64,000 nucleotides of DNA. It comes from Flavobacteriales bacterium. Lineage in GTDB: Bacteria; Bacteroidota; Bacteroidia; Flavobacteriales; CAJXXR01. The notes below the pieces were generated by a model, which searched no databases, was not told the origin of the DNA, and saw only the letters and a list, made by a program, of their open reading frames with translations. The position numbers were made by a program, and so were the translations under genes. Positions within the stretch are counted from its first letter, which is position 1. Each line of letters opens with the position of its first letter. Below, piece after piece: positions 8,462-59,760 of the stretch. The DNA lies in assembly GCA_965243605.1 (NCBI GenBank), contig CBDEVQ010000092.1, positions 48,208 through 112,207 of the forward strand, read 5' to 3'.

Positions 8462-8478
8462 TTAACAATTAGAGCGTT

Positions 8479-10371: not shown

Positions 10372-10388
10372 TTAACAATTAGAGCGTT

Positions 10389-12269: not shown

Positions 12270-12286
12270 TTAACAATTAGAGCGTT

Positions 12287-14182: not shown

Positions 14183-14199
14183 TTAACAATTAGAGCGTT

Positions 14200-16113: not shown

Positions 16114-16126
16114 TAATTAAAACGTT

Positions 16127-25948: not shown

Positions 25949-25988
25949 CAACAACTATTCATTTTTAAATTATATAAACCTAAACCGT

Positions 25989-27872: not shown

Positions 27873-27885
27873 TAATTAAAACGTT

Positions 27886-29799: not shown

Positions 29800-29816
29800 T
29801 TAACAATTAGAGCGTT

Positions 29817-31712
29817 ATGAGAATACTAACCATATTAAGTTATTTATTTTATTTATGTATTAGTTTGAATGGGAATAGCCAAACCATCACGGTTCAGAAT
29901 TTAGACGATTCTGGGGTTGGCTCTTTACGTGATGCTATTTCTAATGCCAATTCAGGTGATACCATCCGTTTTAATCCCATGTTAATTGCTCAAGGGAGTG
30001 ATACTTTAGTATTAGATACAGTGATTAATATTGATAAAGATTTAGTGATAAAAGGGCTTTATGATGATGAGGATACGTTGTTTTTGTCTGTGTCAGACAA
30101 TCAGTCATTCTTCCTTGTTGATACTGTTGAAAGTTTTACACTTGATAGTCTAACTTTTATTTCAGATTCAATTTTCAATGCAAATATTGATTGTTTTAAG
30201 GTATTTGAATCTGGTTTATGCATTGAGAATTCTTCTTTTTTGGGTTTTAAAAAAAATGTATTGTTACTATATCAATCATCTCTTAGGTTTATTAATTCTA
30301 AAATTTTCACATATGATTATTTATCAATGTCTGGTGGAACCCCTCAATATATTTGGTGCTATACGGATGGAAATATCTTAAGAAATTTTGAAATTGTTTC
30401 TAGCGAAATTCAGGCTGGAAATTCAAACGGTTTATATATGACTCTCGGTGGTGTTCAAGACAGTAATAGTGTATTAATTAAAGATACTTATCTTTCTAAT
30501 TTTAGGAGTTGGTTGTTTGGTCATTTTAATTTAAAAATATTAAATAGTACCTTAGAAAACTCATATATTAATATCGGTCATCCTAATATTTCTGGAGGAA
30601 GTTTAGAAAGAAATGCTTTTATTTCGGCTAATGCTTCGACTTTTTCTTTAACTGATTTTGAAGATTTACAAAACCCTATTTCTTGTATCGGTTCACCAAC
30701 AAATCCCTTTGACCCACCTCCCTTAGATGTATTTGAATTACAGTTTGATAACTGTACATTTAATGGGGCTACATATGATAGTAGTTCATATGAAGATTAT
30801 TTCGGTCCCGATTTAGATGAACTAAAAATAACAAGTTGTATTTTTAATGATATTAATGGCTTTAATGAATTACCTATAGACTCATCTGGAGGATATAATC
30901 TATTTAGTTTTCCTCAAAGTATAGGTTTAGATTCTACAGACCAAGCTGATATTTCTGTTTCAGATATTAATTTAGAACCATTACAAAACAATGGAGGGTT
31001 TACGCCTACTCATGTACCAAATTATGAATCATTAGCCTTTAACTCAGGAAATCCAAACGATACAAGCTCTGCCCAAAACGGAGCTATTATTCAACGTAGA
31101 GATATAGGAGCTGCTGAAATACAAGCCGTACTTACTGTAGATACGACTGAATATTGTGGGGAATTTTACGATTGGAGAAATGAAACACTTACGGAATCTA
31201 ATATACACTTTGATGTTCAGGAATCTACCACAGGAGGATATGATAGTGTTTTTGTTCTGGATTTAACTTTAGATTACATTGATGCTATAGCCATTAGTGA
31301 TGGAGGGGAATTAAAAGCCAATATTTCTGATGCAAGCTATCAATGGATAGATTGTTCTACTAATCAACCTTTGTTTGGAGAAACAAATCAGGTTTTAACG
31401 CCAAATACAGAAGGAACCTATGCTGTTATTGTTTCAAGTTCTATTTGTACAGATACATCAAGTTGTGTGTATATTAATAATATAGGGTTAGAAGAGCAAG
31501 AGAAACGCTTTGTATTTGTAAAAGATAAAATACTCTATTTAAATAATGTTAATAGCTATACCGAATATAGTGTTTATAATAACTTAGGGCAAATCGTGTT
31601 TAAATTCAATACAGTAAAAAAACAACAGGATATAACTCATTTAAATTCAGGTGTGTATTTTATTGAGTTTAAAGATGAGAATATTCAACCAGTGAAATTT
31701 ATTTTGGATTAA
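29817..31712 (+). CDS. Array copy B4 (signal a, core class II, CTD beta)
   Basis: 631 aa. The core is homologous to A2. The CTD and the downstream junction are the same as in B1. Confidence 0.9.
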   Translation: MRILTILSYLFYLCISLNGNSQTITVQNLDDSGVGSLRDAISNANSGDTIRFNPMLIAQGSDTLVLDTVINIDKDLVIKGLYDDEDTLFLSVSDNQSFFLVDTVESFTLDSLTFISDSIFNANIDCFKVFESGLCIENSSFLGFKKNVLLLYQSSLRFINSKIFTYDYLSMSGGTPQYIWCYTDGNILRNFEIVSSEIQAGNSNGLYMTLGGVQDSNSVLIKDTYLSNFRSWLFGHFNLKILNSTLENSYINIGHPNISGGSLERNAFISANASTFSLTDFEDLQNPISCIGSPTNPFDPPPLDVFELQFDNCTFNGATYDSSSYEDYFGPDLDELKITSCIFNDINGFNELPIDSSGGYNLFSFPQSIGLDSTDQADISVSDINLEPLQNNGGFTPTHVPNYESLAFNSGNPNDTSSAQNGAIIQRRDIGAAEIQAVLTVDTTEYCGEFYDWRNETLTESNIHFDVQESTTGGYDSVFVLDLTLDYIDAIAISDGGELKANISDASYQWIDCSTNQPLFGETNQVLTPNTEGTYAVIVSSSICTDTSSCVYINNIGLEEQEKRFVFVKDKILYLNNVNSYTEYSVYNNLGQIVFKFNTVKKQQDITHLNSGVYFIEFKDENIQPVKFILD

Positions 31713-31752
31713 CAACAACTATTCATTTTTAAATTATATAAACCTAAACCGT

Positions 31753-33657
31753 ATGACAAGGGTTATTAAATCTATTAGTTTTATATGTTGTTTGTTTCTT
31801 ACGCTCACACTAACAGGACAAACCATAACCGTTCAGAATTTAGATGATTCCGGAACTGGTTCTTTACGTAATGCTATTTCTAATGCCAATTCAGGCGATA
31901 CTATACGTTTTAATCCCATGTTAATTGCTCAAGGGAGTGATACTTTGGTACTAGATACAGTAATAAATATTGATAAAGATTTGGTAATAAAAGGACTTTA
32001 TGATGAGGAAGATACTTTGTTTTTGTCTTCTTTGGAGAATAGAAGTATGTTTTCTATTGATACTGTAGATTATATATTACTTGATAGTCTTTGTTTAGTA
32101 GCTGATACAATCAGTTATAATAATAACTATACTATTAGTTTTGTTTATTCGGATGTTGTTGTTTCAAATTCTTTTTTTAAAGGATATAAAACAACTTTAT
32201 TATATGCTTGGCAATCTTCTTTGAATATTTATGGATGTAGTTTTTATAACGATATAAACACAAATGCATCAATTGTTTTTTTATCAAATGGAGACGAACT
32301 CAGAACTTTGAGTATTATTTCTAGCTTTTTGCAAAACAATAAGACAGGATATAATTTTGATATAAGATTAGCTGGTAATAAAAATAATAATAAAATTACT
32401 TTTGAAGATTCATATTTTAAAGATTCTAAAAGTTGGTTTTTTGGTCATCTATCTACTGACATAACATACTGTACATTTGAAAACTCTCCGTTAAGTTTTG
32501 GACATGAATCATTTGGCGGAGGAACCTTGGAAAGAGATATGACATTACTATGTCTCGGTTCAACATTTTTTATTTCAAATATTGATTATAGGCAAAACTC
32601 TTTCTCTTGTATAGGTACACCAACGAGCCCTTTTGCCCCTCCTCCTTCAGATTTTTTTGAATTACAGTTTAATAATTGTACTTTTAATGGAGGGGTTTAT
32701 ATAGATACAGCTTATGGAAATAATTACGATAGTAATTATTTGGACTACTTCGGACCAGATTTAGATGAGTTAAAAATAACGAGTTGTATTTTCAATGACA
32801 TCAACGGTTTTAATGAATTACCTATAGATTCATCAGGAGGATATAATCTATTTAGTTTTCCTCAAAGTATAGGCTTAGATTCTACAGACCAAGCAAATGT
32901 ATTGGTTTCAGATATTAATTTAGGACAATTACAAAACAACGGAGGATTTACACCAACACACTTACCAGGCTACGAATCTTTAGCGTTTAATGCAGGAAAC
33001 CCTAACGATACCAGTTCGGCTCAAAATGGGGAGATTATACAACGAAGAGATATTGGATCAGCTGAAATACAAGCTATACTTACTGTAGATACTACTGAAT
33101 ATTGTGGCGAATTTTATGATTGGAGAGGGCAAATGTTAACCGAATCAGCTATCTATTCAGATATAGAAGAATCTACAACAGGATTAGATAGTGTTTTTGC
33201 CATAGATTTAACCTTAGAGTATTTAGATGCCCTAGCCATTAGCGATGGAGGCGAATTAACAGCCAATAGTTCTGATGCGACCTACCAATGGATGGATTGT
33301 TCAACCCATTTACCATTGTTTGGTGAAACTAACCAAACCCTTACACCCAGTATAGCGGGAACCTATGCGGTTGTTGTTTCCAATGGAATTTGTACCGATA
33401 CTTCGGCCTGTGTATTTATCGATAATTTGAGTGTAGAAGAGCAGGTGCAATCCTTTGTATTTGTAAAGAATCATGTTTTGTATTTTAACGGGTTAGAAAA
33501 TGCAGAGTTTAACATCTATAATAGCCTTGGGCAGAATATTTTAAGCGGCAATGTAAAATCCGGAGAAATAGACCTTTCAAACTTCCCAAGTGGACTGTAT
33601 AGCATTCAATTTAAAGATGCCACTATGGTTAGATCTATAAAATTTGTATTAAATTAA
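31753..33657 (+). CDS. Array copy B5 (signal c, core class III, CTD alpha)
   Basis: 634 aa. The core is homologous to A3. The segment AILTVDTTEYCGEFYDWRGQMLTESAIYSDIE.STTGLDSVFAIDLTLEYLDALAISDGGELTANSSDATYQW is shared with A6. Confidence 0.9.
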   Translation: MTRVIKSISFICCLFLTLTLTGQTITVQNLDDSGTGSLRNAISNANSGDTIRFNPMLIAQGSDTLVLDTVINIDKDLVIKGLYDEEDTLFLSSLENRSMFSIDTVDYILLDSLCLVADTISYNNNYTISFVYSDVVVSNSFFKGYKTTLLYAWQSSLNIYGCSFYNDINTNASIVFLSNGDELRTLSIISSFLQNNKTGYNFDIRLAGNKNNNKITFEDSYFKDSKSWFFGHLSTDITYCTFENSPLSFGHESFGGGTLERDMTLLCLGSTFFISNIDYRQNSFSCIGTPTSPFAPPPSDFFELQFNNCTFNGGVYIDTAYGNNYDSNYLDYFGPDLDELKITSCIFNDINGFNELPIDSSGGYNLFSFPQSIGLDSTDQANVLVSDINLGQLQNNGGFTPTHLPGYESLAFNAGNPNDTSSAQNGEIIQRRDIGSAEIQAILTVDTTEYCGEFYDWRGQMLTESAIYSDIEESTTGLDSVFAIDLTLEYLDALAISDGGELTANSSDATYQWMDCSTHLPLFGETNQTLTPSIAGTYAVVVSNGICTDTSACVFIDNLSVEEQVQSFVFVKNHVLYFNGLENAEFNIYNSLGQNILSGNVKSGEIDLSNFPSGLYSIQFKDATMVRSIKFVLN

Positions 33658-33674
33658 TTAACAATTAGAGCGTT

Positions 33675-35588
33675 ATGAGAATACTAACCATATTAAGTTA
33701 TTTATTTTGTTTATGTATTAGTTTGAATGGGAATAGCCAAACCATCACGGTTCAGAATTTAGACGATTCTGGGGTTGGCTCTTTACGTGATGCTATTTCT
33801 AATGCCAATTCAGGTGATACCATCCGTTTTAATCCCATGTTAATTGCTCAAGGGAGTGATACTTTAGTATTAGATACAGTGATTAATATTGATAAAGATT
33901 TAGTGATAAATGGGCTTTATGATAGCGAGGATACCTTGTTTATGTCCTCTTTAGAGAATAGAAGAATGTTCCATTTTGATACTGTGGATTATATATTACT
34001 TGATAGCCTTTGTTTGTTAGCAGATACAACGAATGGTTTTAATAATACTATAATAAGTTTTGTTTATTCAGATGTAGTTGTTTCAAATTCTTTTTTTAAA
34101 GAATATAATAAAACTGTTTTAAATTCTTGGCAATCAAATTTAAACATAATAAATAGTTTAATTTCTAGTGATACTTTATATACATTTTATCCTTTAGTTT
34201 ATTCAACTCAAGGTGATACGTTAAGAAAACTAAAAATTATAAAGTCAAAGTTTTTAATAAAGGAAAAGAATACAGTTGGTATAGTAGTTAGAACAGCTGG
34301 AAATAAGGAGAATAATAAGGTGATTATTCAAGATTCATATTTTGAAAATTTTGAAACATTAATATATGGTCATAACACCATGGAGATTCAATATTCAACA
34401 TTTAATAATTCACTAATTAAAACGGGAGAGCCTTATGTGGGGTTTGCATATATTAGAGATATTACATTAACTGTAAAATCTTCAACCTTTGCAATTACAG
34501 ATTCTAATCAAGTCCAAAATACAATTTTATGTATAGGAACACCTTATGGACCTATTGAACCGGTTCCTTTAGATGTTCTTGAGTTAAATTTAACAAATTG
34601 TACGTTTAATGGCGGGATTTACGAAGACGTTATTTATGGAACTGGTTATGATAGTAATTATTTGGATTATTTTGGAGAAAGTATAGATTCATTAAGTATA
34701 ACAAGTTGCATATTTAATGATATTAACGGATTTAATGAATTACCTATAGACTCATCGGGAGGCTATAATCTATTTAGTTTTCCTCAAAATATAGGTTTAG
34801 ATTCTACAGACCAAGCCAGTGTTTTAATCTCTGATATTAATTTGGGATTACTACAAAACAATGGAGGATTTACTCCTACCCATCTACCAAACTATCAATC
34901 ATTAGCCTTTAACTCAGGTAATCCTAACGATACAAGTTTTGCTCAAAATGGAGCTATTATTCAACGTAGAGATATTGGAGCTGCTGAAATACAAGCTACT
35001 CTTACCATAGACACTGTAGAGTATTGTGGAGAAGACTACGATTGGAGAAATGAAACACTTACGGAATCTAATATACACTTTGATGTTCAGGAATCTACCA
35101 CAGGAGGATATGATAGTGTTTTTGTTCTGGATTTAACTTTAGATTACATGGATGCTATAGCCATTAGTGATGGAGGGGAATTAAAAGCTAATATTTCTGA
35201 TGCAACATACCAATGGATGGATTGTTTAACCCATTTACCATTGTTTGGCGAAACCAACCAAACCCTTACACCCAGTATAGCGGGAACCTATGCCGTTGTT
35301 GTTTCTAACGGAATTTGTACCGATACTTCGGCCTGTGTATTTATCGATAATTTGAGTGTGGAAGAGCAGGTGCAATCATTTGTATTTGTAAAGAATAATG
35401 TTTTGTATTTTAAAGGATTTAGTGAGGGTAAAATGGATTATATGATCTTTAATAATTTAGGACAACAGATACTGTACTCAAATACTTCACAGGAAGTACA
35501 AGATCTTTCCTATTTAGAATCAGGGGTTTATTTTATTGAATTTATGAGTAAACAGAATAGAAAGCCAATACAATTTATTATCAACTAA
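33675..35588 (+). CDS. Array copy B6, last gene of block B (signal a, chimeric core III/V, alpha-to-gamma-like hybrid CTD)
   Basis: 637 aa. The core starts like B5/A3 (SSLENRRMFHFDTVDYILLDSLCLLADT...SFVYSDVVVSNSFFK), then switches to the A6 segment. The CTD begins VQSFVFVKNNVLYF as in B2, then ends ...DLSYLESGVYFIEFMSKQNRKPIQFIIN. Confidence 0.9.
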   Translation: MRILTILSYLFCLCISLNGNSQTITVQNLDDSGVGSLRDAISNANSGDTIRFNPMLIAQGSDTLVLDTVINIDKDLVINGLYDSEDTLFMSSLENRRMFHFDTVDYILLDSLCLLADTTNGFNNTIISFVYSDVVVSNSFFKEYNKTVLNSWQSNLNIINSLISSDTLYTFYPLVYSTQGDTLRKLKIIKSKFLIKEKNTVGIVVRTAGNKENNKVIIQDSYFENFETLIYGHNTMEIQYSTFNNSLIKTGEPYVGFAYIRDITLTVKSSTFAITDSNQVQNTILCIGTPYGPIEPVPLDVLELNLTNCTFNGGIYEDVIYGTGYDSNYLDYFGESIDSLSITSCIFNDINGFNELPIDSSGGYNLFSFPQNIGLDSTDQASVLISDINLGLLQNNGGFTPTHLPNYQSLAFNSGNPNDTSFAQNGAIIQRRDIGAAEIQATLTIDTVEYCGEDYDWRNETLTESNIHFDVQESTTGGYDSVFVLDLTLDYMDAIAISDGGELKANISDATYQWMDCLTHLPLFGETNQTLTPSIAGTYAVVVSNGICTDTSACVFIDNLSVEEQVQSFVFVKNNVLYFKGFSEGKMDYMIFNNLGQQILYSNTSQEVQDLSYLESGVYFIEFMSKQNRKPIQFIIN

Positions 35589-42006: not shown

Positions 42007-42165
42007 AACGTTGTGTCTTCCATTAGGTTTAAGGATACAAAGTGTATTTTGACACCAAAAGTAAAAATAGGATAGCTTATTTATTTTGTCGTTTATCCAT
42101 ATGTTCTCAGAATTTATTATGTAAATTAGAATACCATTCAAATATAACTTTTAATTTATTTAATA

Positions 42166-43659
42166 ATGAAAATTGGAAAACATGAAATTTCTATTTTAGA
42201 TCTATCGATTGCCTTTGTATTATTAATCTTAACGGCTGTTTTTGTCTTTGGTTTTTTTACTTTACTAACCGATGCCATTCGGTATGTCACCTTAGATCCT
42301 TATGATAAGGAATTAATATTTTCAGGAGAATATAGATTGTATTTTAATCTGTTTTACGCTGGTTTAGGGCTCTTAATTGGTCAATCGTTTGCATTATACT
42401 ATTTACTTCCCAGGCTACCCTTACCGTCTTATTTTAAGACCCAAATACTAAATGATAATCAATGGGTCATATGGTCGGTTTTGCTGTTAGTGATAAAGGG
42501 TATAGCCATATTGGTAAGCTATAGAATGATTTTTATGAGCGATTCATTAACGGCAATGGTACCCCTGATAGTTTGTATCATGTTAACCATATTAGGTGTT
42601 ATGTTTATTTATTCTTGGAATGGAATAAGACGGTATATATTAGGTACACGCATAATGGTATTAATGGTTGGTTTTCTTTTCTATTCGTCCTTGTCTTTTT
42701 TAATTGCACATATTTCTTTTATAGATCGCCAAACTATAGATGAAATGGCATTGAACAATAATGTGGTACATACACATGATATTCAATATCCAGAAGCAGA
42801 ATGGGGAAGGAAGATTAAACGAAAATCCTTGGTTATTGATCTTGTGATTGGGAAGAATCCTAAAACTCAAGAAGTAGAGGTGTTTTATGAGAATAATTTA
42901 GTGCCTTTAAATAGTTTGGATTCTGTGTTGTTTAGCGTTAGGAATTCTTTTAGAATGGAAGAATTAAAATTTACAACAATAGGTTTACGGGCAGATAAAC
43001 ATTTAAAAGTAAAAGATATATTACCTATTCTTGAACGGTTATACATTAGTGGACAAAAACGCATTTTATTTTATGTAAATATATTCGATGAGCCTTTTAT
43101 GGCTGATCCAGTATTTTCATTTAAACTATCAGAAGCAATATTTTATGATTATTTGAATGGGAAATTAGATAGCTTAGATGTAAAAAAGACAAAATACTCA
43201 TTATCTACTCCTCCTTTACATACAATTATTTCAAATTATTATATTCCAAATAATGGTGTTGATGTATACGTATCTCAAGAAAAATCTTATATAAATCAGC
43301 ATGAGAAATTTTCAGTTCTTTCCATGACCAATAAATTAAGTGAAGCATTTAAGCAAGATGAGGCGAGTACTATTACATTTTATTTTGTAGATGAGAATAT
43401 AACACTTGGTGAATATATAAATACGAAAAGTCAAATATATAAGGCATACCATGAATTGAGGAATGAGTATGCTATGCAACATTTTAGCAAATTCTATGAA
43501 GATCTAAATTCCAATAACCGTAGAAGCATCAGAAAACAATATCCAATCAATATTATGGAGTTTGGGTTAAAGAGTATAAACAAAGAAAGAATGGACGCTT
43601 TTTTTATAGAACAAAAGGAACTTTACCATAAAAGATGGATGTGGATTTGTTTGCCATAG
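42166..43659 (+). CDS. Multi-pass membrane protein of unknown function with a ~300-aa soluble C-terminal region
   Basis: About 6 hydrophobic helices in the first ~190 aa. The C-terminal part has segments loosely reminiscent of ExbD/TolR-type folds (TTIGLRADKHLKVKDILPILERLYISGQKRILFYV), but this is not securely assignable. Confidence 0.6.
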   Translation: MKIGKHEISILDLSIAFVLLILTAVFVFGFFTLLTDAIRYVTLDPYDKELIFSGEYRLYFNLFYAGLGLLIGQSFALYYLLPRLPLPSYFKTQILNDNQWVIWSVLLLVIKGIAILVSYRMIFMSDSLTAMVPLIVCIMLTILGVMFIYSWNGIRRYILGTRIMVLMVGFLFYSSLSFLIAHISFIDRQTIDEMALNNNVVHTHDIQYPEAEWGRKIKRKSLVIDLVIGKNPKTQEVEVFYENNLVPLNSLDSVLFSVRNSFRMEELKFTTIGLRADKHLKVKDILPILERLYISGQKRILFYVNIFDEPFMADPVFSFKLSEAIFYDYLNGKLDSLDVKKTKYSLSTPPLHTIISNYYIPNNGVDVYVSQEKSYINQHEKFSVLSMTNKLSEAFKQDEASTITFYFVDENITLGEYINTKSQIYKAYHELRNEYAMQHFSKFYEDLNSNNRRSIRKQYPINIMEFGLKSINKERMDAFFIEQKELYHKRWMWICLP

Positions 43660-48363: not shown

Positions 48364-51046
48364 ATGAAAGCCTTACTTCTTTTTTTTATACTACCATTAC
48401 AGTTGTTTGCACAAGTTCGGTTATCCGGACTTGTGACAGATAGCTTGAACAATCCTTTGGAATTAGCCAATATTATGGCCATAAATGAAGATACCGATGA
48501 AATTGATGCATTTGGGGTATCTAATTCGGAAGGGAAGTTTATTTTAGAACTCCACACCAATGCCAATTACATGCTTAAAATAAGCTATGTAGGTATGAAA
48601 GAACTACAAGAGCCAATTAAAACAAATACAGAATCCATAGAGCATACCGTTGTTTTAAAAGAGGACTCTAGACTAAAAGAGCTTGAACTTGTTTATGAAA
48701 TGCCAATTACCATCAATGGAGATACATTAACCTATAAAACGGATGCGTTTACAAATGGTACCGAAAAAAAATTAGAGGAAGTATTGGATAAGTTACCAGG
48801 GGTTGAGGTTACCGAAGACGGTGAGATTAAAGTTGAAGGAAAAACCGTTAACAAAATAATGGTTGAAGGAAAAACCTTTTTTGATGGAGATACTAAACTG
48901 GCAACAAAAAACATTCCTGCAGACGCTTTAGAAAAGGTTGAGGTGTTAAAGAATTTTACTGAGGTGGGTATGATGAAAAACCTTGGGGGAAATGAAGATA
49001 ATGTAGCTATTAATGTAAAGTTAAAAGAGGGTAAAAAGAATTTTGGTTTGGTGAAATTACAGCAGGGGTAGGACCGGATAATAGACATTTAATACACCCA
49101 AATTGTTTTACTATAGCCCAAAATACAGTGTGAATCTTATTACGGATATTAATAATATTGGAGAAATTCCATTTACGATAAACGATTATTTTAAATTTTC
49201 GGGCGGATTTAGTGCCTTAAATTCTGGAACGTCATTAAATTTTAACGATCCGGCCTTGCAGTTTTTAATGGCGCAGAATAACCGAGCTAAGTCCGTAGAT
49301 ACAAAATTTGGCGCGCTTAACTTAAATTATACACTACGTAAAGATCTAGATTTAAATGGGTTTTTAATTTTATCTGACTCTAAAACAACCTTAAAGGAAG
49401 AGAGTCAGAGAACATATTTTTCGTCATCATTGCCAGATGAAACAACCAATAGTGATGTCTTGCAAAATAACACATTGGGCCTTTTAAAACTATCGTTAAA
49501 ATACGAGCCCAATTCAAGTTTATATATGACATACGAAGCCTTTGGAAAACATTCTGAGCAAAAACAGGACAATCTATTTGTATCTTCGGTATACAACCGA
49601 ATAGAAGAAACGCAACGCTTAAATCCGAAAAGCCTTAAACAAAACATCGGGTTATATAAATCCTTTTCGACCAAAGATATTTTGTCCTTTGAATTACAAC
49701 ATACCTATAAAGACGAAGATCCATTTTACAATGCCATACAACAACAATCAGGTCTTTCTCAATTTGTAAATGTATTACCTATAGATACTAATCAGAATGC
49801 CTATAGATTAAATCAGGATAAATTTGTGAAAACCAATAAAATAGATGTTAAATCAAAATATTGGTACATATTAAACAAAAAAAGTAATATTAGTACAAAT
49901 GCAGGATTCTCAAGAAGTACTCAGAATTTTAATACCCGCCTATACCAAACCTTAGATGATTTAAGCGTAAAACCCTTAGGCTCAGAAGGTGTTAAGAGTG
50001 TAAACGCGGTAGAGTATACGATTAACGATGTGTATTTTGGGGCGCAATACCGTTTAAAAGCTGGAATATTCACCTTACATCCTGGTGTTAATGTACATCA
50101 CTATCAAGTTGAAAACAACCAAAATAACATTGAAACGGCTCAAACATTTAATCGTATCCTTCCAAGCATGAACCTTAGATTGCAGTTTAAAAAATCTGAA
50201 CATATGACATTAAGGTATTCTGCACAAAATCAATTTACAGATATAAATACCCTTGCCGAAGGTATAATCTTAAACAGATACAATAGTTTATACCAAGGGA
50301 ATAAATTATTAGAAAGTTCATTAAATCATGTTTATTCAATTGGGTACTTTAATTTTAATCAATTTAGTTTCACCAATATATTTGCCAACGTAAATTATAC
50401 CAAAACCGAAGATCCAATTTCTATTAATACAATGTTTTTAGGGAATGCAGAGCAGGCAGGGCTAGATCAGATAGGAGGTCCGCTAAATTCTAATTTTGCA
50501 AACGAAAGTTTAAATGCAGATATCAATATAGAAAAAACAATACGTAAAATTAAAGGTCGTTTAGAAGGTCGATTTTCTTATTCTAAATTCAATCAATTCT
50601 TAAACGATGAACGAGAAGTGAATGAATCCTTAAATCAGAATTATACAATAAGTCTGAAAACAAATTTTAGAAAACGACCAAATTTGGAAATTGGGTATCA
50701 AGTGAATATAGATCACTATCATCAAGTTGGTAGAGTATCTAAGTTTTATAATCACCAACCCTATGTAAAGCTAAAAGCCAAATTCTTAAAATCGTTTCTA
50801 TTACATATAGATTATACCCATTATACGTATACGGATGAACATACCGTTTTGAATCGATATGGTTTTTTAAATGCAAATTTAAGTTATCAGAAAAAAGATG
50901 CTAAACTAGAATATAAATTTCAGGTTTCTAATATCTTAAACAATACATCCATTAATTCTAATAACTCTAATGCTTGGAACACGTCTACCACTTGGTTTTA
51001 TGTGCAACCTCGATACATGGTATTAAGTGCAACGTATCATCTATAA
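48364..51046 (+). pseudogene. Outer-membrane beta-barrel / TonB-dependent-receptor-like gene (CarboxypepD_reg N-domain) broken by two 1-nt frameshifts
   Basis: ORFs 48364..49071 and 49103..51046 are the two ends of one gene. The 20-codon bridge FWFGEITAGVGPDNRHLIHPN is open only in the third frame (49041..49103). The frame changes sit at the T-run 49041..49044 and at 49103/49104. Confidence 0.8.
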
Positions 51047-51229
51047 AGAATAGCAGGAATACAAATTCCTGTTATTTATATCTAATTGCTTATTGTATTA
51101 ATAGGTTGTGGTATATGCGAATATTAATGGGATATAAGAATCTGAATGCGTTAGTGTTATTTTTATCTTAAATTGCAGATCAATCATTACAATCATTATA
51201 TATTTGTGCCATTAATAGGATTCTTTATT

Positions 51230-54200
51230 ATGAAAAAATCAATATTTATCTTTTTTATAATCTTTTGTGTTTTTCAGAAATACGAAAGTTATGGACAGGC
51301 ATTAAATGGAATATATACCATAGGAGGAACTACTCCGGATTATACCACGATTAATGATGCTGTTGAAAGTGTGGAAACGAATGGAATAGATGGCAATGTG
51401 ATCTTTAATATTCGATCTGGAGTTTATAATGAGCAAATACGGATTAATACATATAGTGGAAGTCCCCAATTTAATGTTGTTTTTCAATCTGAATCAGGAA
51501 ATTATTCGGATGTTATTGTAAAACATACCCATACTTCGGCATTAGAAGATGAAAACTATACCTTATTTATTGATGGAGCTGACCATTTAACGTTTAATGG
51601 AATCACCTTTCAAGCCACACCGTCCACAACGAATAATACGCAGTTATTTAGTAGAGTTTTATTTATTAATCAAAACTCTGATCACTTAACTTTTCTGGGA
51701 AATCACTTTAAATCATGGTATAGCATTTCGTTATCATCTCTTTTTGGACTTAACGATTGTATTTATATTTCTGATGAAGATAATGATAGTCTTCATTTTG
51801 AAGCAAATCTTGTTGAAGGAGGGTATGTTGGACTTCATCAAGAGGGAGGGAATAGTCAGGCTATTTTTAATCAAGATATTCAAGTAAACGATAATCAATT
51901 CATTAGTCAAAAAATGAAGGGATTAGAGATTGATCGTACTGAACATGTATTTATTTCGGGTAATATATTTAATTCAGTTAGATCTATTGGAATTCAAGTT
52001 GGTAATTGTGAAAAAGGTTTAGTTGTTAAGAATAATAAAATTGTTTTAGGATCTGGAGAGAAAGGAATTTCAATATTTGGTATTCCATCTGATCCCAATT
52101 ACTTTCAAGGTGTAGTAAATAATATGATTTACGATACTGAGAATCCAAATAATCCAGATGTTAAAGGAATCATCAGTTTACAAAATGATGCTTTACTTTT
52201 TGCATATAATTCTATCCAGGTTTCATCAAATTATTTGGGATCAGCTTGTTTATCAATTGTTGGTGGAGATTCAATCGTATTATACAATAATATATTATCC
52301 AATCTTGGAGGTGGAGTTTGTGTACGTAGTGTAAATACCAATGGAACTTTAATTTCGAATAACAATAATTATCATTATACAGGTTATGTACTCGCTAATT
52401 TAGATGGATCTAATTATTTTTCGGTTGATGACTTAATGGACATTGGAATTGATTCTTTATCATATAATGTAGATCCATTATTTTTATCTGATTCCATTTT
52501 AATTCCATTAAATAATCAATTATATGATTCTGGTAGACCAATTATTGACGTTCTAGATGATTATTTTGAAAATATTAGACCTGTTGATTCAACGAATATT
52601 GGAATTTACGAAGGTGATTTTCCACATGTAGATGTCGGTATTGAATCATCTACCTTAAACACAAATAATGGATGTGCAAACGATTCTGTACCTATATATG
52701 TATCTATTAAAAATTATGGAGATTCAGTATTAACATCAACTCAAATTATTTTAGACGCAACGGATACCGTAGTTTGGAGTGGTAGTTTAGCTCAATTTGA
52801 AATTGCTGATAGTATATTCTGTGGCTTTTTTGTTTATGAGGAAAGTTTAGATAGCTCATTTTTTATTAGGGTAGCAAACCCAAATGGTCAATCAGATATT
52901 CTTTCGTTTAATAACGTCTTACAGATTAATACTCAGTCAGCCATGTCTGGTCAATATACGATTGGAGATTCGTTAAAAGATTTTAGTTCGTTTACAGAAG
53001 CCATAGAACGTTTAATAGATAGAGGAGTATGTGGACCAACCATTTTTAATATAGATTCTGGAATTTATAATGAACAATTGATTATTCCAGAAATCATAGG
53101 CGCATCTATAAATAATACAATCACTTTTCAGTCTGCTGGTTTAGATAGTACATTAGTAGAATTAAATTATGCACATCTTAATAGTTGGACCAATTATGTT
53201 GTTTTATTAGATGGAACGAATTACATACACTTTAAGCATTTAACAATTAAATCTACAACCTCTCAAGGTAAAGTAGTAATTGCTAAAGGTTTTGCTGGTA
53301 ACAATGTGTTTGAACAAAACATAATTTCTGGTAATTCTGGAAATTTAATGGAATTTATTGCCAATAATCAAAACAAAATTAACAACAATCGAATTGCTAA
53401 TAATAGATTTATCGAAGGTGGTGTACAAATTTGGTTTAAAGGACCACAGCAATTCAATACCACTACCAATTCTGAGAATAATGAAATCTATGGGAATATA
53501 TTTGTTGGACCTTGTAATAAAAGTATAGATTTAACAGGACAAATAAATCCCACAATAATAAACAATGTATTTGAAGGCATTCGCTTAGGAGATAATATTA
53601 ACCTAAGCTACTGTTCAGGTATAATACATATAGATCGTAATGAATCATTTTCTAAAAGTTATGGGAACCATGCATTTTTAGCAATTAACCATGTACAAGG
53701 AACATCTATAAACCCGATCTTAATTAGAAATAATTTTATAATGCGTACTAATGGAGGGTATGATTCTGGAATCAGTTTGGCATCATCCTCGCATATAAGG
53801 ATTCTACACAATAATTTTAATATACTAGAAGGTGTCGATGATAGAGTTATCTTCTTTGGGAGTAGCTTATCTAACATAAGTATATTAAACAATGTTATGA
53901 AAGTTGCTGGTGGACATCATTTCTACTATTTTAGTCAGTTTGCCAATCCAAATGCAATTGTGTCAGATTATAATGTGTTTTACACCGATGAAAACCAATC
54001 TTTTAATTGGGAAGGAACAGGAGATTATACGCTAAATGGGTGGCAAAGTACATATCTACAAGACAGTAATAGTCTGTTTGCTACCATTATCTATGAGAGC
54101 GATACGAATTTGCACATTTCAAATTCCATAGCGTTTTATGGCAATGGTATACCATTGGATGATGTTCTTATAGATATAGATTTAGAGCCTAGAGATACGG

Positions 54201-54775
54201 CATTACCTTGTAGAGGAGCCGATGAGTTTGTTATTGATAATGCCACTTATGTAGATTTAGAATTAATTGATATTCTATATCCAGATGTAAATGCATGCTT
54301 ATCTACAGATTCGTTAAAAATTAGAATTCACAATAAATCCTTTATTCCAGTTAACACCTTCAATGTACGTTGGGTATTATTTGATCATACGACGGATACG
54401 GTAGAATTTACTCAAACTATTTTACCAGGAGACACTGCAGATTTTAATCTTGGAGCTTATAATTTTGTGGAAAATACGTTCTATAATTTCAATTTTGATG
54501 TCTTTAATATCAATGGAGAATCTGACGATTACTATAATGATAACTTTAAAGAAATAGAGTATTATTATCTTAATCAAATAAAGATTTATTCAGATGTGGA
54601 TGAGGAATGTAATACAGATACTGAATTATTTGTGAAGCGCATTCCAGGAGGACAAATTTTATGGTCTACTGGGGAAACTGACAATAGAATATATGTGACT
54701 TCTCCTGGAGTTTACAGCGTAACTGTAACACATGAGAATGGATGTATTGTAACCGATAGCATAACTATTTATTAA
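51230..54775 (+). CDS. Large secreted right-handed beta-helix repeat protein with two internally duplicated modules and no T9SS CTD
   Basis: I prefer the ATG at 51230 (MKKSIFIFFIIFCVFQKYESYGQ signal) to the TTG at 51173. The module openers LNGIYTIGGTTPDYTTINDAVE...IFNIRSGVYNEQI (51302) and MSGQYTIGDSLKDFSSFTEAIE...IFNIDSGIYNEQL (52943) are paralogous. Many PbH1-like coils are present. The protein ends in a small Cys module, WSTGETDNRIYVTSPGVYSVTVTHENGCIVTDSITIY. Confidence 0.85.
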   Translation: MKKSIFIFFIIFCVFQKYESYGQALNGIYTIGGTTPDYTTINDAVESVETNGIDGNVIFNIRSGVYNEQIRINTYSGSPQFNVVFQSESGNYSDVIVKHTHTSALEDENYTLFIDGADHLTFNGITFQATPSTTNNTQLFSRVLFINQNSDHLTFLGNHFKSWYSISLSSLFGLNDCIYISDEDNDSLHFEANLVEGGYVGLHQEGGNSQAIFNQDIQVNDNQFISQKMKGLEIDRTEHVFISGNIFNSVRSIGIQVGNCEKGLVVKNNKIVLGSGEKGISIFGIPSDPNYFQGVVNNMIYDTENPNNPDVKGIISLQNDALLFAYNSIQVSSNYLGSACLSIVGGDSIVLYNNILSNLGGGVCVRSVNTNGTLISNNNNYHYTGYVLANLDGSNYFSVDDLMDIGIDSLSYNVDPLFLSDSILIPLNNQLYDSGRPIIDVLDDYFENIRPVDSTNIGIYEGDFPHVDVGIESSTLNTNNGCANDSVPIYVSIKNYGDSVLTSTQIILDATDTVVWSGSLAQFEIADSIFCGFFVYEESLDSSFFIRVANPNGQSDILSFNNVLQINTQSAMSGQYTIGDSLKDFSSFTEAIERLIDRGVCGPTIFNIDSGIYNEQLIIPEIIGASINNTITFQSAGLDSTLVELNYAHLNSWTNYVVLLDGTNYIHFKHLTIKSTTSQGKVVIAKGFAGNNVFEQNIISGNSGNLMEFIANNQNKINNNRIANNRFIEGGVQIWFKGPQQFNTTTNSENNEIYGNIFVGPCNKSIDLTGQINPTIINNVFEGIRLGDNINLSYCSGIIHIDRNESFSKSYGNHAFLAINHVQGTSINPILIRNNFIMRTNGGYDSGISLASSSHIRILHNNFNILEGVDDRVIFFGSSLSNISILNNVMKVAGGHHFYYFSQFANPNAIVSDYNVFYTDENQSFNWEGTGDYTLNGWQSTYLQDSNSLFATIIYESDTNLHISNSIAFYGNGIPLDDVLIDIDLEPRDTALPCRGADEFVIDNATYVDLELIDILYPDVNACLSTDSLKIRIHNKSFIPVNTFNVRWVLFDHTTDTVEFTQTILPGDTADFNLGAYNFVENTFYNFNFDVFNINGESDDYYNDNFKEIEYYYLNQIKIYSDVDEECNTDTELFVKRIPGGQILWSTGETDNRIYVTSPGVYSVTVTHENGCIVTDSITIY

Positions 54776-54781
54776 AACAAA

Positions 54782-57451
54782 ATGAAACTAAACCAATTTT
54801 TAACCCTTAGATTATTCATGTTTTGTTTTATGTTGATATCAACAGGAATAGCACAACAGATTAAAGATAAAACCTATTATTTTGATCAAGCTCATGAATT
54901 TTTAAATTATATAGACGATTATAAGGAGCTTCCGGATGGAATTTTAATTGCTGGAAGAATCGGAACGTATTATAATTCAAATTCTGTAATTCTAAAAATT
55001 AATTTTAATGGTCAATTAATTTGGTCTACTAAAGATACAGCTCCTTTAGAATATAACATGAATGGTAAAATTGAATTTGAGGCCTTTGAAAGTCATCATG
55101 TTTATGGTATTTCCATAAGAGGGGATCAAAATTCAGATTACCATGCTGATGTGTGGAAACTTAATATGGATAATGGACGTTTTGAATGGTCGAATACATA
55201 TACAAATATTATCAATTGGGGATATGAAGTTTTAGATTATGATTCCAATTATTTGATTTGTGCTTTTCAAAATTCGGATGGGCATAAGTTAAGAGTACTC
55301 GATAAAGTGGATGGACACCTTGAAGATAGTACATCATTTGATGCGATTTATTTAACTTTAGATATAGAGAAAGATATAAATGGAAATGTCTACTTTTTAA
55401 CGGATAATGAATTAACCAAATTTTCTGGAAGACAATGGGATCAAGAGATTTGGAATCGATCTTATTCTCATTTAGATGTAGAATTAGGAAAATTACATGA
55501 ATTGTATATTGATAAATATGATGAGGTATATTTGTTTGGTGAAAGCGATTTTTCATCCAGTTATAGATCAGTAATAATAAAAGTGAATACCCATACAGGG
55601 TTCAGCCTTTGGGCAAAAAGGTTATATGGTATTCATAATAATTGGTTAAAAAGCTTTATTGATGACGCTGACAAATTATACACCACCTATCAAAATGAAA
55701 TTAATGGAAATGGATCGTTCAATTTAAAAGTTCTTGACAAACAAACGGGGCAAATAGAACAGGATACAATTTACTCTATTGAGGTCTTGGGAGATCCAAA
55801 TGGTCTATCTAATGGGGCTTCTGCATTCTCACTAGATAAAGATTGTAATGGAGATATTTATTTTACAGGCTATTATGGCGGTGGTAATAATGGACCTGGA
55901 GCATGGGGGATACTTAAAGTAGATGGGAATAGTTACAATAAATTATACGATTTAACCATAACTAAAGACTCTTTAAATGTTGATGGATCAAGTATAGGTC
56001 TAGGATGTCTTATTGTTGATGATGTTCCTATTTTCTTAGGTCATCAAGATAGTTCTCAGTCAGAAACACCAGAGGCACATATGGTTTCAATTGACCCTAC
56101 AGATGGACAAATTGAAATGAAAATTCATATTAGTGGAGAAAATTTAGAAAAATCTTTAGTTAAGGAATTAATACGAGACGAACATAATACATACACCTTT
56201 ATTCAAGAAGGTGCGTTTTTAACTATAGAGAAGTATAATAAATTTGAAAATATAATATGGGAGAATACCGTTTCTAATTCCTATTTTAATGCGGGACAAA
56301 TGGAAACAGACATCGATTATATGTTTGCAACGATGTATAACTTAAATAGAGATTCTATTGCTGTAAATAATAACAATGAGAGTTTAAATTGGATGCTCAT
56401 AAAGCAAATCGATCTTTTTTCTGGAGATGTAGAGTTTACAGATAGTATTCCTTTTAATGGGCAGAAAGGGTTTTCTTATGAAATAGAGGTTGACCAAGAT
56501 GAAGCCTATATCTTTTTCACAAGAAACGATTCAAATTATTGTGCTCGATGGAAAGAGGATACGATTGATTCTATTGTATTTTTAGAGTTATCTAGTGATC
56601 AGTTACTATACCAAGGACGTAAAGACCTTGTTTTAGAAAAAGATGCAAATACATATTTAACCTTAGGATCACAAAATGTGTATTCTTTAAATAAGGCAGA
56701 TATGACACTTACCAACACTTGGAATTACCCGACTGATAGAACTTATTATTATGGGAAAATACAAGGCGATTCATTATTTATGGTTGGTCATGATGTTAAT
56801 AATATGTCAATTGTAACGTGTTTAAACATAAATGGAATGACAGTTTTATGGGAAGAAATGTATGAGCAAAACGAGTCTTTATATAATCTGCAAATAGATA
56901 CGACCAATCATATATTTGTTACGGGGTTACAAAACAACGCATTAGTGATTAGAGAGATCGTTCCTCAAAATGGATCTTCTGTATGGGAATATGTTTCAAA
57001 TCCAATACTCGGATCAAAGTCCATTCCACATGATTTTATTTATAATAAGCATCAAAATAAACTCGTTGTTACAGGAACGAAGGACTATTTAAATGGGTAT
57101 TCTAATCTATTTATTTCTACCGTAAGTATTCAAGGCGATTTATTGTTTGATTATGAAGAAAATAATGGGTTGGAAGGTAGGAATTACGGGAATGCAATTG
57201 CCGTAGTAAATGATTCTATTACCTGGGTTGGAGGACAAATTCACACGATTTCTAAGCCAAAAAGTGGTGTTATTTATTCCATAGTAGATACATTGATAGA
57301 AGATAATACGTCTAACATTTCTCAAGTGGAATACGGAAGTAATAAGCATAATGTTTTTGTTTATCCGAACCCAACTTCTAAAGTATTACATATAGATGGA
57401 GTTGAACGTTTTGATTATATAATCCATGATAATATTGGGCGATTAATAGTA
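54782..57451 (+). pseudogene. Secreted beta-propeller-like repeat protein (BamB/PQQ-like W-containing repeats), 5' part; its T9SS CTD is interrupted by an IS element
   Basis: Signal peptide MKLNQFLTLRLFMFCFMLISTGIAQQ. The CTD begins VFVYPNPTSKVLHIDGVERFDYIIHDNIGRLIV, then reads into the IS end (WYFYLCW*, annotated ORF end 57475). Confidence 0.85.
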
Positions 57452-57507
57452 TGGTATTTCTACCTTTGTTGGTAGAGTAAGTTAAGACAAAACTTATTTT
57501 AGCAGTT

Positions 57508-57813
57508 ATGAAGAGAAGTACTTACGAAGAATCCTTTAAGTTAATGATAATGGATTTATACAAAGGCGGACAATCGATGTCTAGCTTATCGTCTGAATAT
57601 TCAATAAATTTGAATATGTTATATCGTTGGCGTCGAGAATATTTAAACCCAAAGCGTCCCAGTTTTACGGGCAGAGGCAATGCAGCTTTGACTGATGAAC
57701 AAAAAGAACTAAAGCATTTAAAAGAAAAATTAAAAGATGTAACCATGGAACGTGACATCTTAAAAAAGGCAGTAAGCATTTTCTCCAAGAAAGACAGAAC
57801 AGGTACGCTATAA
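57508..57813 (+). CDS. IS3-family transposase OrfA (HTH / leucine-zipper part)
   Basis: 101 aa with YRWRREY and a heptad Leu stretch. The slippery heptamer A AAA AAG lies at 57762..57768, in the zero frame of orfA. Confidence 0.9.
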   Translation: MKRSTYEESFKLMIMDLYKGGQSMSSLSSEYSINLNMLYRWRREYLNPKRPSFTGRGNAALTDEQKELKHLKEKLKDVTMERDILKKAVSIFSKKDRTGTL

Positions 57814-57815
57814 TT

Positions 57816-58682
57816 TTGGAATATTCAGCAACCTATTGTGTCGAGAAGATGTGTAAGTCTTTAAATATAAGTTCTAATGCGTATTATTCATGGAAACGTA
57901 GGCTAGATATAGAACGTTCTAGCATCACAATAGAATTAAAAGAGTCTATTCAAGCGGTTTATGCAGAAAATAGAGGATTGTACGGAGCTCCTAAACTCCA
58001 AAAAGCTCTAGAGAGAAAAGGTGTTTTTTACTCGAGGTCTTATATTTCTAGATTGATGAAAGAAATGGGGCTATATTCTAAGACACGTAGGAAATTTACT
58101 AATACAACGGACTCAAATCATAGTCATAGAGTAGAAGAAAATCATTTAGATCGGAATTTTGAGGTATTAGAACTTGGGAAAGTATGGGTATCGGATATTA
58201 CTTATATCAAAGTTAATCAGACCTGGCAATATTTAACTACAATGATTGATTTAGCAGACCGTAAGGTTGTAGGGTGGTCTGTAAGTTCTAATCTAACAGC
58301 TACAGATACTGTTATTACAGCTTGGAAACATGCGCGATTAAATCGAAATATAGAAGATGACTTTATATTACACTCGGATCGTGGAGTACAATATACATGT
58401 GATGATTTTAAACAGATTATTAACTTAAATACAAAAGCGAAACAATCTATGAGTAGAAAAGGAAATTGCTGGGATAATGCCGTTGCCGAGTCTTTTTTTA
58501 AAACAATTAAAACTGAACTATGCTACCTCATTACATTTGAATCTAAGAAACATTTGGAGACCGAAATCTTTAAATATATGAACTGGTATAATAACTCTAG
58601 ATTACACTCTACTCTAGACTACAAAACACCTACCGAAAAAGAACAAGAATTAAGATACAAACAAATTAAACGAGTGGCTTAA
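57816..58682 (+). CDS. IS3-family transposase OrfB (DDE/rve catalytic part), probably expressed as an OrfAB fusion by -1 frameshifting
   Basis: The orfB frame is open from 57756, which covers the A6G site. DDE residues lie in the contexts WVSDITYI, HSDRGVQYT and NAVAESFFKTIKTE. Confidence 0.9.
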   Translation: MEYSATYCVEKMCKSLNISSNAYYSWKRRLDIERSSITIELKESIQAVYAENRGLYGAPKLQKALERKGVFYSRSYISRLMKEMGLYSKTRRKFTNTTDSNHSHRVEENHLDRNFEVLELGKVWVSDITYIKVNQTWQYLTTMIDLADRKVVGWSVSSNLTATDTVITAWKHARLNRNIEDDFILHSDRGVQYTCDDFKQIINLNTKAKQSMSRKGNCWDNAVAESFFKTIKTELCYLITFESKKHLETEIFKYMNWYNNSRLHSTLDYKTPTEKEQELRYKQIKRVA

Positions 58683-58715
58683 CTTTTTCTACCAAATTTT
58701 GTAGGAATATCAGTA

Positions 58716-58832
58716 TCTGAATCGAATAAAAAAGAAAATATCATTAATGTTGAAAACCTATTAAATGGTACTTATATAATTGAAATTAGACATCAGAATT
58801 GGACTGAAGTATTTAAGTTTGTTAAGTTTTAA
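58716..58832 (+). pseudogene. Displaced 3' end (last 38 codons of the T9SS CTD) of the IS-interrupted gene 54782..
   Basis: It reads SESNKKENIINVENLLNGTYIIEIRHQNWTEVFKFVKF*, in frame with ...GRLIV once the IS and one copy of GTA are removed. Confidence 0.85.
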
Positions 58833-58890
58833 AGATTAGAGAATCAATATTAAACAATGGGTATAGACCTTAAATCTGTATAAATAATCG

Positions 58891-59592
58891 ATGCTTATGA
58901 AATATATTATTAGCCTATTACTTTTTATTCCATTGGTGTTACATGCGGAATATAATAGTGTTCAAATTGCATTTGATATCGAATTAAAGGATGGAAGTCT
59001 GATACATGGGTATAAAGAAATGAGAAATCACGATTTTAAGGTCTCTCATAAAAAATACCTTAAAAATGACCTCCAATTATTTCTTAAGAATGAATCTGTT
59101 AAGGAACCAGGAGAATATGGATACTATTCAGAAAGGATACGATATAAATATCAATCAAGTTATGTATATCAATTATTGGATCCAAAAGAAATAATTATAA
59201 GTGATATTGATACGCTTATTATAACTGAATTGATTAATGATTCTTTCATTATTAATTTAACAGGGACGTATACAATAGAAGATACCATTTGGATGAATAC
59301 CAGTTCTATAGTACATTATACGTACAATGAATTTATGTGTTCTAACGATGTTTTTATACATTCGGCAAAAGGAATTCCAATTCTAATTCAACAAGAATTG
59401 GCGTTAATCGTTGATAGGTATAAGGATAAGATTGAATTAATGTATAAAAAAATAGAGGATCAAATTGATTCTGATGAAGATTATGAACGATTGATGAAAG
59501 ACCTTTATCACGATAGAGAAAAAGCCTTGGAACCTTATTTTAGAACTTATAAAAGTTTAAAAAAAGCAACCGTAGTCATGTGTACGTGTTAA
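58891..59592 (+). CDS. Hypothetical secreted protein (233 aa)
   Basis: N-terminal signal-like segment MLMKYIISLLLFIPLVLHA. No recognisable domain. Confidence 0.6.
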   Translation: MLMKYIISLLLFIPLVLHAEYNSVQIAFDIELKDGSLIHGYKEMRNHDFKVSHKKYLKNDLQLFLKNESVKEPGEYGYYSERIRYKYQSSYVYQLLDPKEIIISDIDTLIITELINDSFIINLTGTYTIEDTIWMNTSSIVHYTYNEFMCSNDVFIHSAKGIPILIQQELALIVDRYKDKIELMYKKIEDQIDSDEDYERLMKDLYHDREKALEPYFRTYKSLKKATVVMCTC

Positions 59593-59760
59593 TAAACAAA
59601 AAAAGTAATATTAGAACAAAGTAGGATGCTTAAGAAGTAGGCAGGGTTTTAATACTAGATCTTAAATAGCACATTAATTAACTCTATTAATTCTAATGTC
59701 TGGAATACTTCTACCACTTGGTTTTATATATAACCTGGGTACACGGCCTAACATTTTTAA
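59590..59760 (+). pseudogene. Decayed relic of a second outer-membrane barrel gene (paralogue of 48364..51046) with a large internal deletion
   Basis: 59590..59656 aligns with 49870..49935 (taaacaaaaaaagtaatattag.acaaa...aagaagta..cag..ttttaatac). 59675..59760 aligns with the 3' end at 50950..51046 (aattctaatg.ctggaa.ac.tctaccacttggttttat...). No intact frame remains. Confidence 0.65.

Follow-up and report, generated by a model that had tools for sequence, protein, structure and literature searches.

A stretch of 64,000 nucleotides from a Flavobacteriales bacterium (assembly GCA_965243605.1, contig CBDEVQ010000092.1, positions 48,208 to 112,207; hereafter the window) harbors a type IX secretion system (T9SS) cargo gene that is interrupted near its 3′ end by a complete insertion sequence (IS) of the IS3 family. 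Almost certainly, the best explanation of the locus is that this element inserted into a gene for a T9SS cargo of 928 amino acids (aa), leaving a truncated product that would be disabled for export.

In the proposed course of events, the 1261-bp element inserted itself at the cargo gene's 3′ end and duplicated the trinucleotide GTA. The element encodes OrfA, a helix-turn-helix (HTH) protein, and, through a predicted −1 frameshift at A_AAA_AAG, a 391-aa OrfAB transposase of the DDE type. By analogy with characterised members of the IS3 family, it would move by a copy-out-paste-in route with a circular intermediate. The insertion leaves in place about 31 of the roughly 69 residues of a type A C-terminal sorting domain (CTD); the last 38 are replaced by seven IS-encoded residues and a stop codon in the left inverted repeat (IRL). 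Carrying a predicted N-terminal signal peptide, the truncated protein would reach the periplasm; with the last β-strands, which carry the T9SS export signal, gone, it would neither cross the outer membrane nor be anchored, which would amount to a functional knock-out. This is a textbook gene disruption by a mobile element, clean but biologically routine, and the case raises no new question. Its practical consequence lies in annotation: the 897-aa open reading frame (ORF) present today is the IS-disrupted pseudogene of a 928-aa T9SS cargo, and the 38-codon remnant beyond the element is not a separate gene.

Boundaries of the element

57452..58712, plus strand: complete IS3-family IS, 1261 bp, in the same orientation as the target gene, with TG...CA ends
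57452..57486, plus strand: left terminal inverted repeat IRL, 26 of 35 positions pairing with the right repeat; also recovered by a repeat search
58678..58712, minus strand: right terminal inverted repeat IRR, last bases GGAATATCA
57449..57451, no strand: left copy of the target-site duplication, GTA, 3 bp, read directly from the flank
58713..58715, no strand: right copy of the target-site duplication, GTA, 3 bp, read directly from the flank

The first-pass annotation of the window had described a 1261-bp element with TG...CA ends at these positions, bounded by imperfect inverted repeats of about 30 bp and flanked by a direct repeat of GTA. Recomputed coordinates agree in every respect, and the flanking GTA is perfect on both sides. 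The element opens with TGGTATTT (in a longer stretch, TGGTATTTCTACC) and closes with GGAATATCA. The terminal repeats are indeed imperfect, the 26 matches among the 35 outermost positions including the TG...CA tips, and the repeat search found the same pair. IRL additionally contains a small palindrome, CTACC-TTTGTT-GGTAG, as well as the stop codon TAG (57473-57475) of the shortened target ORF. The element occurs only once within the 64-kb window.

The ends could also be compared with those of three further copies, designated L001, L002 and L003, which were reached via the 90%-identity protein cluster of OrfB and are 93-95% identical in DNA where this was measured (L001 and L002). The first of these, L001, is 95% identical and comes from SRR31443513 as a Logan contig of 1264 bp; it starts with a sequencing adapter, is missing 19 nt at the beginning of the element and terminates exactly at ...GGAATATCA. 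L002 (GCA_022076565.1, contig JAKLPE010000567) is 93.6% identical and diverges from the window directly after ...GGAATATCA. L003 (same assembly, contig 1520, 2377-3636) has both ends, TGGTATTTCTAC... and ...GGAATATCA, with ATAA on each side; TGGTATTTCTAC opens both IRL and this copy. Neither the assembly accessions nor the run accessions turned up in a search of the literature. Since all three break at the same bases, the proposed ends are the real ends of the IS, and the inverted repeats are in agreement with these copies. Target duplications in this family of copies are thus 3-4 bp long (GTA here, ATAA at L003).

Two of the copies are decayed. L002 (positions 1-1092) is called as fragments of 126 and 95 aa, and L003, which has acquired stop codons and frameshifts, as fragments of 144 and 77 aa.

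The uninterrupted target site, CGATTAATAGTATCTGAATCG (57440-57451 joined to 58713-58724), is a weak palindrome of the form CGATT...AATCG. For this reason, the match between the inverted repeats reaches 12 nt past the IS ends, with 7 of 12 positions paired. The palindromic look of the site is probably due to chance.

Reconstruction of the target gene

54782..57451, plus strand: 5′ portion of the disrupted gene (codons 1-890), for a predicted secreted protein with a signal-peptide-like N-terminus and the first half of the T9SS sorting domain (residues 860-890)
58716..58832, plus strand: orphaned 3′ remnant, the last 38 codons (SESNKKEN...KFVKF) and a TAA stop, encoding the C-terminal half of the sorting domain

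The product encoded at present (ORF 54782..57475) is 897 aa long and consists of 890 native residues followed by WYFYLCW, which is read from IRL up to the TAG. Its N-terminus, as read from the sequence, is hydrophobic and signal-peptide-like, MKLNQFLTLRLFMFCFMLISTGIA followed by QQ, ending in ...STGIA/QQ. Deletion of the IS together with one GTA yields a single 928-aa ORF, ...HDNIGRLIV/SESNKKENIINVENLLNGTYIIEIRHQNWTEVFKFVKF followed by a stop codon, so the claim that the flanks join into one open frame holds in exact reconstruction, and the lost tail is exactly 38 residues long. When eight deletion sizes were compared (0-7 nt beyond the IS), the frame was kept only at 0, 3 and 6 nt, 3 nt being the size that is biologically expected. 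DNA of the empty site would read ...TTAATAGTA joined directly to TCTGAATCG and would be 1264 bp shorter than the present locus.

Besides the disrupted protein itself, a search of 5.8 billion proteins returned a sole homologue, P0132, a protein of 953 aa with PQQ_2 and Por_Secre_tail domains. It is 25% identical, and its alignment covers 98% of the length of the 5′ part and runs across the junction into the restored tail.

Loss of the sorting domain

The reconstructed C-terminus matches both models of the T9SS type A sorting domain. Against PF18962 (Por_Secre_tail) it aligns over positions 1-72 of 75 with 37 bits (cut-off 27, E 4e-9), and against TIGR04183 it scores 44.5 bits (cut-off 23, E 1e-11); the domain match stops 4 residues short of the C-terminus. 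In contrast, the 890 native residues align only to positions 1-34 of 75 of PF18962 and score 13.8 bits, below the cut-off, and the tail of the 897-aa product has no match in NCBIfam. With the 38-codon remnant put back, the score against PF18962 climbs from 13.8 bits to 37. Like the type A CTDs of RgpB, HBP35 and flavobacterial cargo, the reconstructed tail has a YPNP start, a G-x-Y motif (NGTYIIEI) and a basic/hydrophobic last strand (KFVKF); unlike them, the domain is split in the present gene, with 34 of 75 model positions still attached. The proposal that the IS lies within a T9SS sorting domain, which its removal returns to canonical form, is therefore borne out by the two models, both of which the truncated form fails. 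The original wording was that the element sits precisely within this domain. The insertion is inside the CTD, but there is no sign of targeting, as two other copies lie outside CTD-coding DNA.

In Porphyromonas, cargo that has lost the last few residues of the CTD stays periplasmic, and the export signal resides in the last 22 residues, corresponding to the last two β-strands (PMC4804311). The need for the CTD's C-terminus is also documented in PMC11285876. By analogy with Porphyromonas, a protein deprived of its last 38 residues should be neither exported by the T9SS nor attached to the surface, and is likely to be stranded in the periplasm. The locus is a clean natural case of a cargo cut from the C-terminal half of its CTD, and could offer a naturally occurring test of CTD requirements in bacteria other than Porphyromonas. 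Por_Secre_tail is matched by at least three further ORFs of the window, which, along with the host's placement in Flavobacteriaceae by NorB, indirectly suggests that the host has a T9SS; no gene for the T9SS machinery is present within the 64 kb.

Transposase genes and predicted frameshifting

57508..57813, plus strand: orfA, 101 aa, HTH regulatory/DNA-binding transposase protein (PF01527 HTH_Tnp_1, E 1e-9)
57816..58682, plus strand: orfB, DDE catalytic domain in the −1 frame, open from 57759 (Pfam matches rve, rve_2, rve_3, HTH_21)
57762..57768, plus strand: slippery heptamer AAAAAAG, read A_AAA_AAG in the orfA frame, predicted site of programmed −1 ribosomal frameshifting
57776..57852, plus strand: predicted extended hairpin beginning 7 nt past the heptamer, candidate frameshift stimulator

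Assignment to the IS3 family, as originally proposed, is confirmed by protein models. The NCBIfam model transpos_IS3 (NF033516, cut-off 160) gives OrfB by itself 290 bits, and OrfA aligns to positions 2-90 of the same model. Among the Pfam matches of OrfB, rve (PF00665) has an E value of 8.5e-18. The catalytic residues of OrfB are D127, D188 and E225, followed by K232 (K at +7), in DD(35)E spacing and numbered on the 288-aa OrfB ORF. Every sequence-testable feature of the IS3 family is thus found in the element: the model score, ORFs in two frames with a heptamer, the DDE residues with K or R at +7, imperfect inverted repeats in the range of about 20-40 bp and a target duplication in the range of 3-5 bp.

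A frameshift heptamer at 57762..57768 between intact transposase frames had also been claimed, and this reading stands: the orfA frame reads A_AAA_AAG, and orfB lies in the −1 frame. Frame arithmetic and the fused translation indicate that a −1 slip at this site would give the 391-aa OrfAB fusion. Among 28 relatives (40-56% identity, from GTDB representative genomes), 26 carry AAAAAAG at the identical offset, the distance to the point where the conserved orfB match begins being 87 nt. This positional conservation is strong comparative support for the predicted frameshift site. The downstream hairpin has a minimum free energy of −24.2 kcal/mol (z = −2.58 against shuffled sequences, one of 200 shuffles being equally stable), and the fold prediction is consistent with a role as frameshift stimulator.

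The fused 391-aa product is already recorded in the protein database as P0127, with KKAGKHF where the predicted fusion reads KKGSKHF. The idea that P0127 is a natural orfA-orfB fusion mutant was rejected, since the same DNA yields KKAGKHF when the G that follows GCA is read a second time, in keeping with a −1 slippage join made in the annotation.

Relationship to known IS3-family elements

The element resembles IS3 of E. coli (InsE/InsF) in length (1261 versus 1255 bp for the annotated IS3A), in the size of OrfA (101 versus 99 aa), in having orfA and orfB in frames 0 and −1, and in its DDE transposase. Target duplications of 3 bp are typical of the IS3 family. When OrfB was compared with E. 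coli references, IS3 InsF scored best (31.5% identity, 150 bits), ahead of IS150 InsK (30.6%, 124 bits) and IS2 InsD (43.5 bits); this comparison covered three of the five subgroups IS2, IS3, IS51, IS150 and IS407, namely IS3, IS150 and IS2, so being nearest to IS3 is not a subgroup placement. Unlike IS3, with which it shares only about 31% amino-acid identity, the window element has terminal repeats that are unrelated in sequence, resides in a Bacteroidota host and carries a Bacteroidetes-type TAnnTTTG box in IRL. Its TG...CA ends are shared with IS150 (InsJ/InsK), in which an A_AAA_AAG-type heptamer is followed by a stem-loop, as predicted for the window element, and whose target duplications measure 3-4 bp, comparable to the 4-bp ATAA at L003. 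IS150 is, however, longer (1443 bp), with an OrfA of 173 aa.

Closer relatives are found among proteins annotated by PGAP as 'IS3 family transposase' in the marine Flavobacteriia Maribacter sp. BPC-D8, Polaribacter sp. Q13, Formosa sp. PL04, Cellulophaga algicola and Tenacibaculum maritimum. These share the fused length (387 versus 391 aa), the Pfam domains and the heptamer offset, and 97-99% of the query is aligned, but amino-acid identity is only 50-56% (50-53% for alignments of the fused protein). A protein-based scan of GTDB representative genomes likewise returned only relatives of at most 55-56% identity, and whatever lies closer is without a name, namely an ENA contig (86% identity) and the cluster to which the element itself belongs. 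A 33-mer taken from the IS had no exact match in GTDB representative genomes, which places the source genome outside that set, and the right end of the IS had no match in JGI metagenomes. Assignment to an existing ISfinder element requires much higher identity than 50-56%. As no named relative exceeds about 56% amino-acid identity, the element is very probably an unnamed member of the IS3 family. It is probably a new ISfinder entry, and may serve as a marker of recent genome change in the lineage.

Copy number and age of the insertion

The count of identical copies that had been called for shows that the element is multicopy: NCBI and ENA records place the exact OrfA protein on 22 contigs and an exactly matching OrfB of 277 aa on 20, figures that stand for protein records on contigs and not for per-genome counts or duplications. 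Together with the perfect target duplication, with reading frames and inverted repeats that are intact, and with a remnant of 38 codons whose score still marks it as half of a CTD, these roughly 20 identical protein sites suggest that the element expanded recently and is probably still mobile. The decayed copies in the second assembly, GCA_022076565.1, indicate that the IS family predates the burst of identical copies and occurs in at least two genomes. The earlier suggestion of a recent and still active element thus gains indirect support as to recency from the duplication, the intact frames with their DDE residues and the identical proteins; activity in the present day is a likely extension of these observations.

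Alternative explanations

Several observations weigh against the disruption of a full-length cargo gene by a recently expanding element. No intact orthologue exists among the 5.8 billion proteins searched, and the junction peptide of the empty site, DNIGRLIVSESNKKE, has no match in JGI metagenomes. The host can be placed among the marine Flavobacteriaceae through the NorB encoded in the window, which is 84% identical to Cellulophaga and 83% to Aquimarina proteins, and the nearest relative found, reached via NorB and then a Rce1-like neighbour, is the ENA metagenome contig ERZ928181 k127_114509 (257 kb, about 93% DNA identity). This contig is syntenic with the window on both sides of the locus but is devoid of window positions ~51,047-59,658, a block of 8.6 kb that comprises a 1200-aa β-helix ORF, the cargo gene carrying the IS and, following it, a 233-aa ORF at 58891-59592. 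The first-pass annotation had advised a search for the empty site in related strains; the search found none, the nearest relative being without the entire gene block. In addition, the requirement for the CTD was established in Porphyromonas and not in this organism, the figures for identical copies are protein records, and the junction may be an assembly error at repeats.

In the window, a direct repeat of 88 bp (50933-51020 and 59659-59746, 80% identity) flanks the missing block on either side; it derives from the outer-membrane-protein gene upstream, namely from the 3′ end of that gene. The bracketing repeat and the absence from the relative point to insertion or deletion of the block by recombination at this repeat. 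Because the block is missing from the relative, the target is a strain-specific accessory gene, and the data searched contain no empty site.

Against this background, the element could be a fixed, immobile relic and the insertion an old one, a history to which the degraded copies of the same IS in another assembly (L002 and L003) would be suited. The copy in the window, however, has intact frames, DDE residues, heptamer and inverted repeats and a perfect 3-bp duplication; the remnant of 38 codons has not lost its score as half of a CTD, and the presence of identical OrfA on 22 contigs and of identical OrfB on 20 fits a recent spread. The relic explanation is consequently considered unlikely. 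A technical origin of the junction, either as a mis-join at a repeat or as a minority allele, deserves mention because multicopy ISs are classic sites of assembly error and this element is multicopy; the Logan assembly did in fact collapse a related copy into the stand-alone 1264-bp contig. Nevertheless, a mis-join would not be expected to generate a perfect 3-bp repeat and at the same time an in-frame rejoining into a full sorting domain, and hardly any weight can be given to this origin.

It is also very improbable that the insertion was targeted or selected, be it through a preference of the IS for CTD-coding DNA or through an adaptive loss of the cargo. The window is rich in CTD-bearing genes, but L003 is intergenic and L002 runs into unrelated DNA, neither of them lying in CTD-coding sequence, and a single insertion provides no statistical support for a preference. 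As for selection, the target resides in the strain-specific 8.6-kb accessory block, where its loss could be tolerated or favoured. Disruption of the cargo gene by a mobile IS3-family element remains the preferred explanation.

Candidate promoter in the left inverted repeat

57461..57468, plus strand: TACCTTTG, candidate −7 promoter box inside IRL, fitting TAnnTTTG, 47 nt upstream of the orfA ATG

The sequence TAnnTTTG is the −7 promoter consensus of Bacteroidetes, known from promoter studies in Bacteroides and Flavobacterium. Of 35 relatives, 19 have this motif in the 80 nt upstream of their orfA, compared with about 5% expected from background frequency, and it clusters at 44-52 nt, suggesting that TACCTTTG is a candidate promoter element of the transposase. 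A scan for sigma-70 promoters gave fewer matches than shuffled sequence; the sigma-70 model does not describe Bacteroidetes promoters. IRR carries TTTG at 58698-58701. If the two ends were abutted with a 3-nt spacer in a transposon circle, this TTTG would lie 23 nt upstream of TACCTTTG, and one might hypothesize that a promoter forms at the junction, as in IS911 and IS2. The optimal spacing is about 19 nt, shorter than the predicted 23 nt.

A more far-reaching proposal would combine these elements: an undescribed IS3-family member that underwent a recent burst (about 20 identical copies) in marine Flavobacteriaceae, with transcription adapted to Bacteroidota, including the junction promoter, and that is actively pruning the T9SS secretome. 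Taken as a whole, this combination is doubtful.

Neighbouring genes

Apart from the disrupted cargo gene, other parts of the window differ from related sequences. A stretch of about 1.5 kb (42025-43513) is absent from all three related contigs. In this stretch lies an ORF of 497 aa (42166-43659) with no Pfam match, between a 181-aa ORF and the gene for a PrsW protease. Upstream of the accessory block, the ORFs at 48364-49071 (235 aa, CarboxypepD_reg) and 49103-51046 (647 aa, OMP_b-brl_3) have as their joint counterpart in the relative one gene of 894 aa. This gene (48364-51046) appears to have been split by a stop codon or frameshift, and could be a pseudogene or reflect a sequence error.

Finally, the window contains two tandem arrays (6542-18040 and 24035-35588) of six paralogous ORFs each, with about 630 aa per ORF, and a DUF4832 protein of 1806 aa is encoded between them. 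The paralogue at 6542-8461, the sole one scanned, has a weak, sub-threshold match to Por_Secre_tail. The relative has a single such paralogue after its DUF4832 gene, which suggests that a putative T9SS cargo gene was amplified in tandem in a lineage-specific manner.

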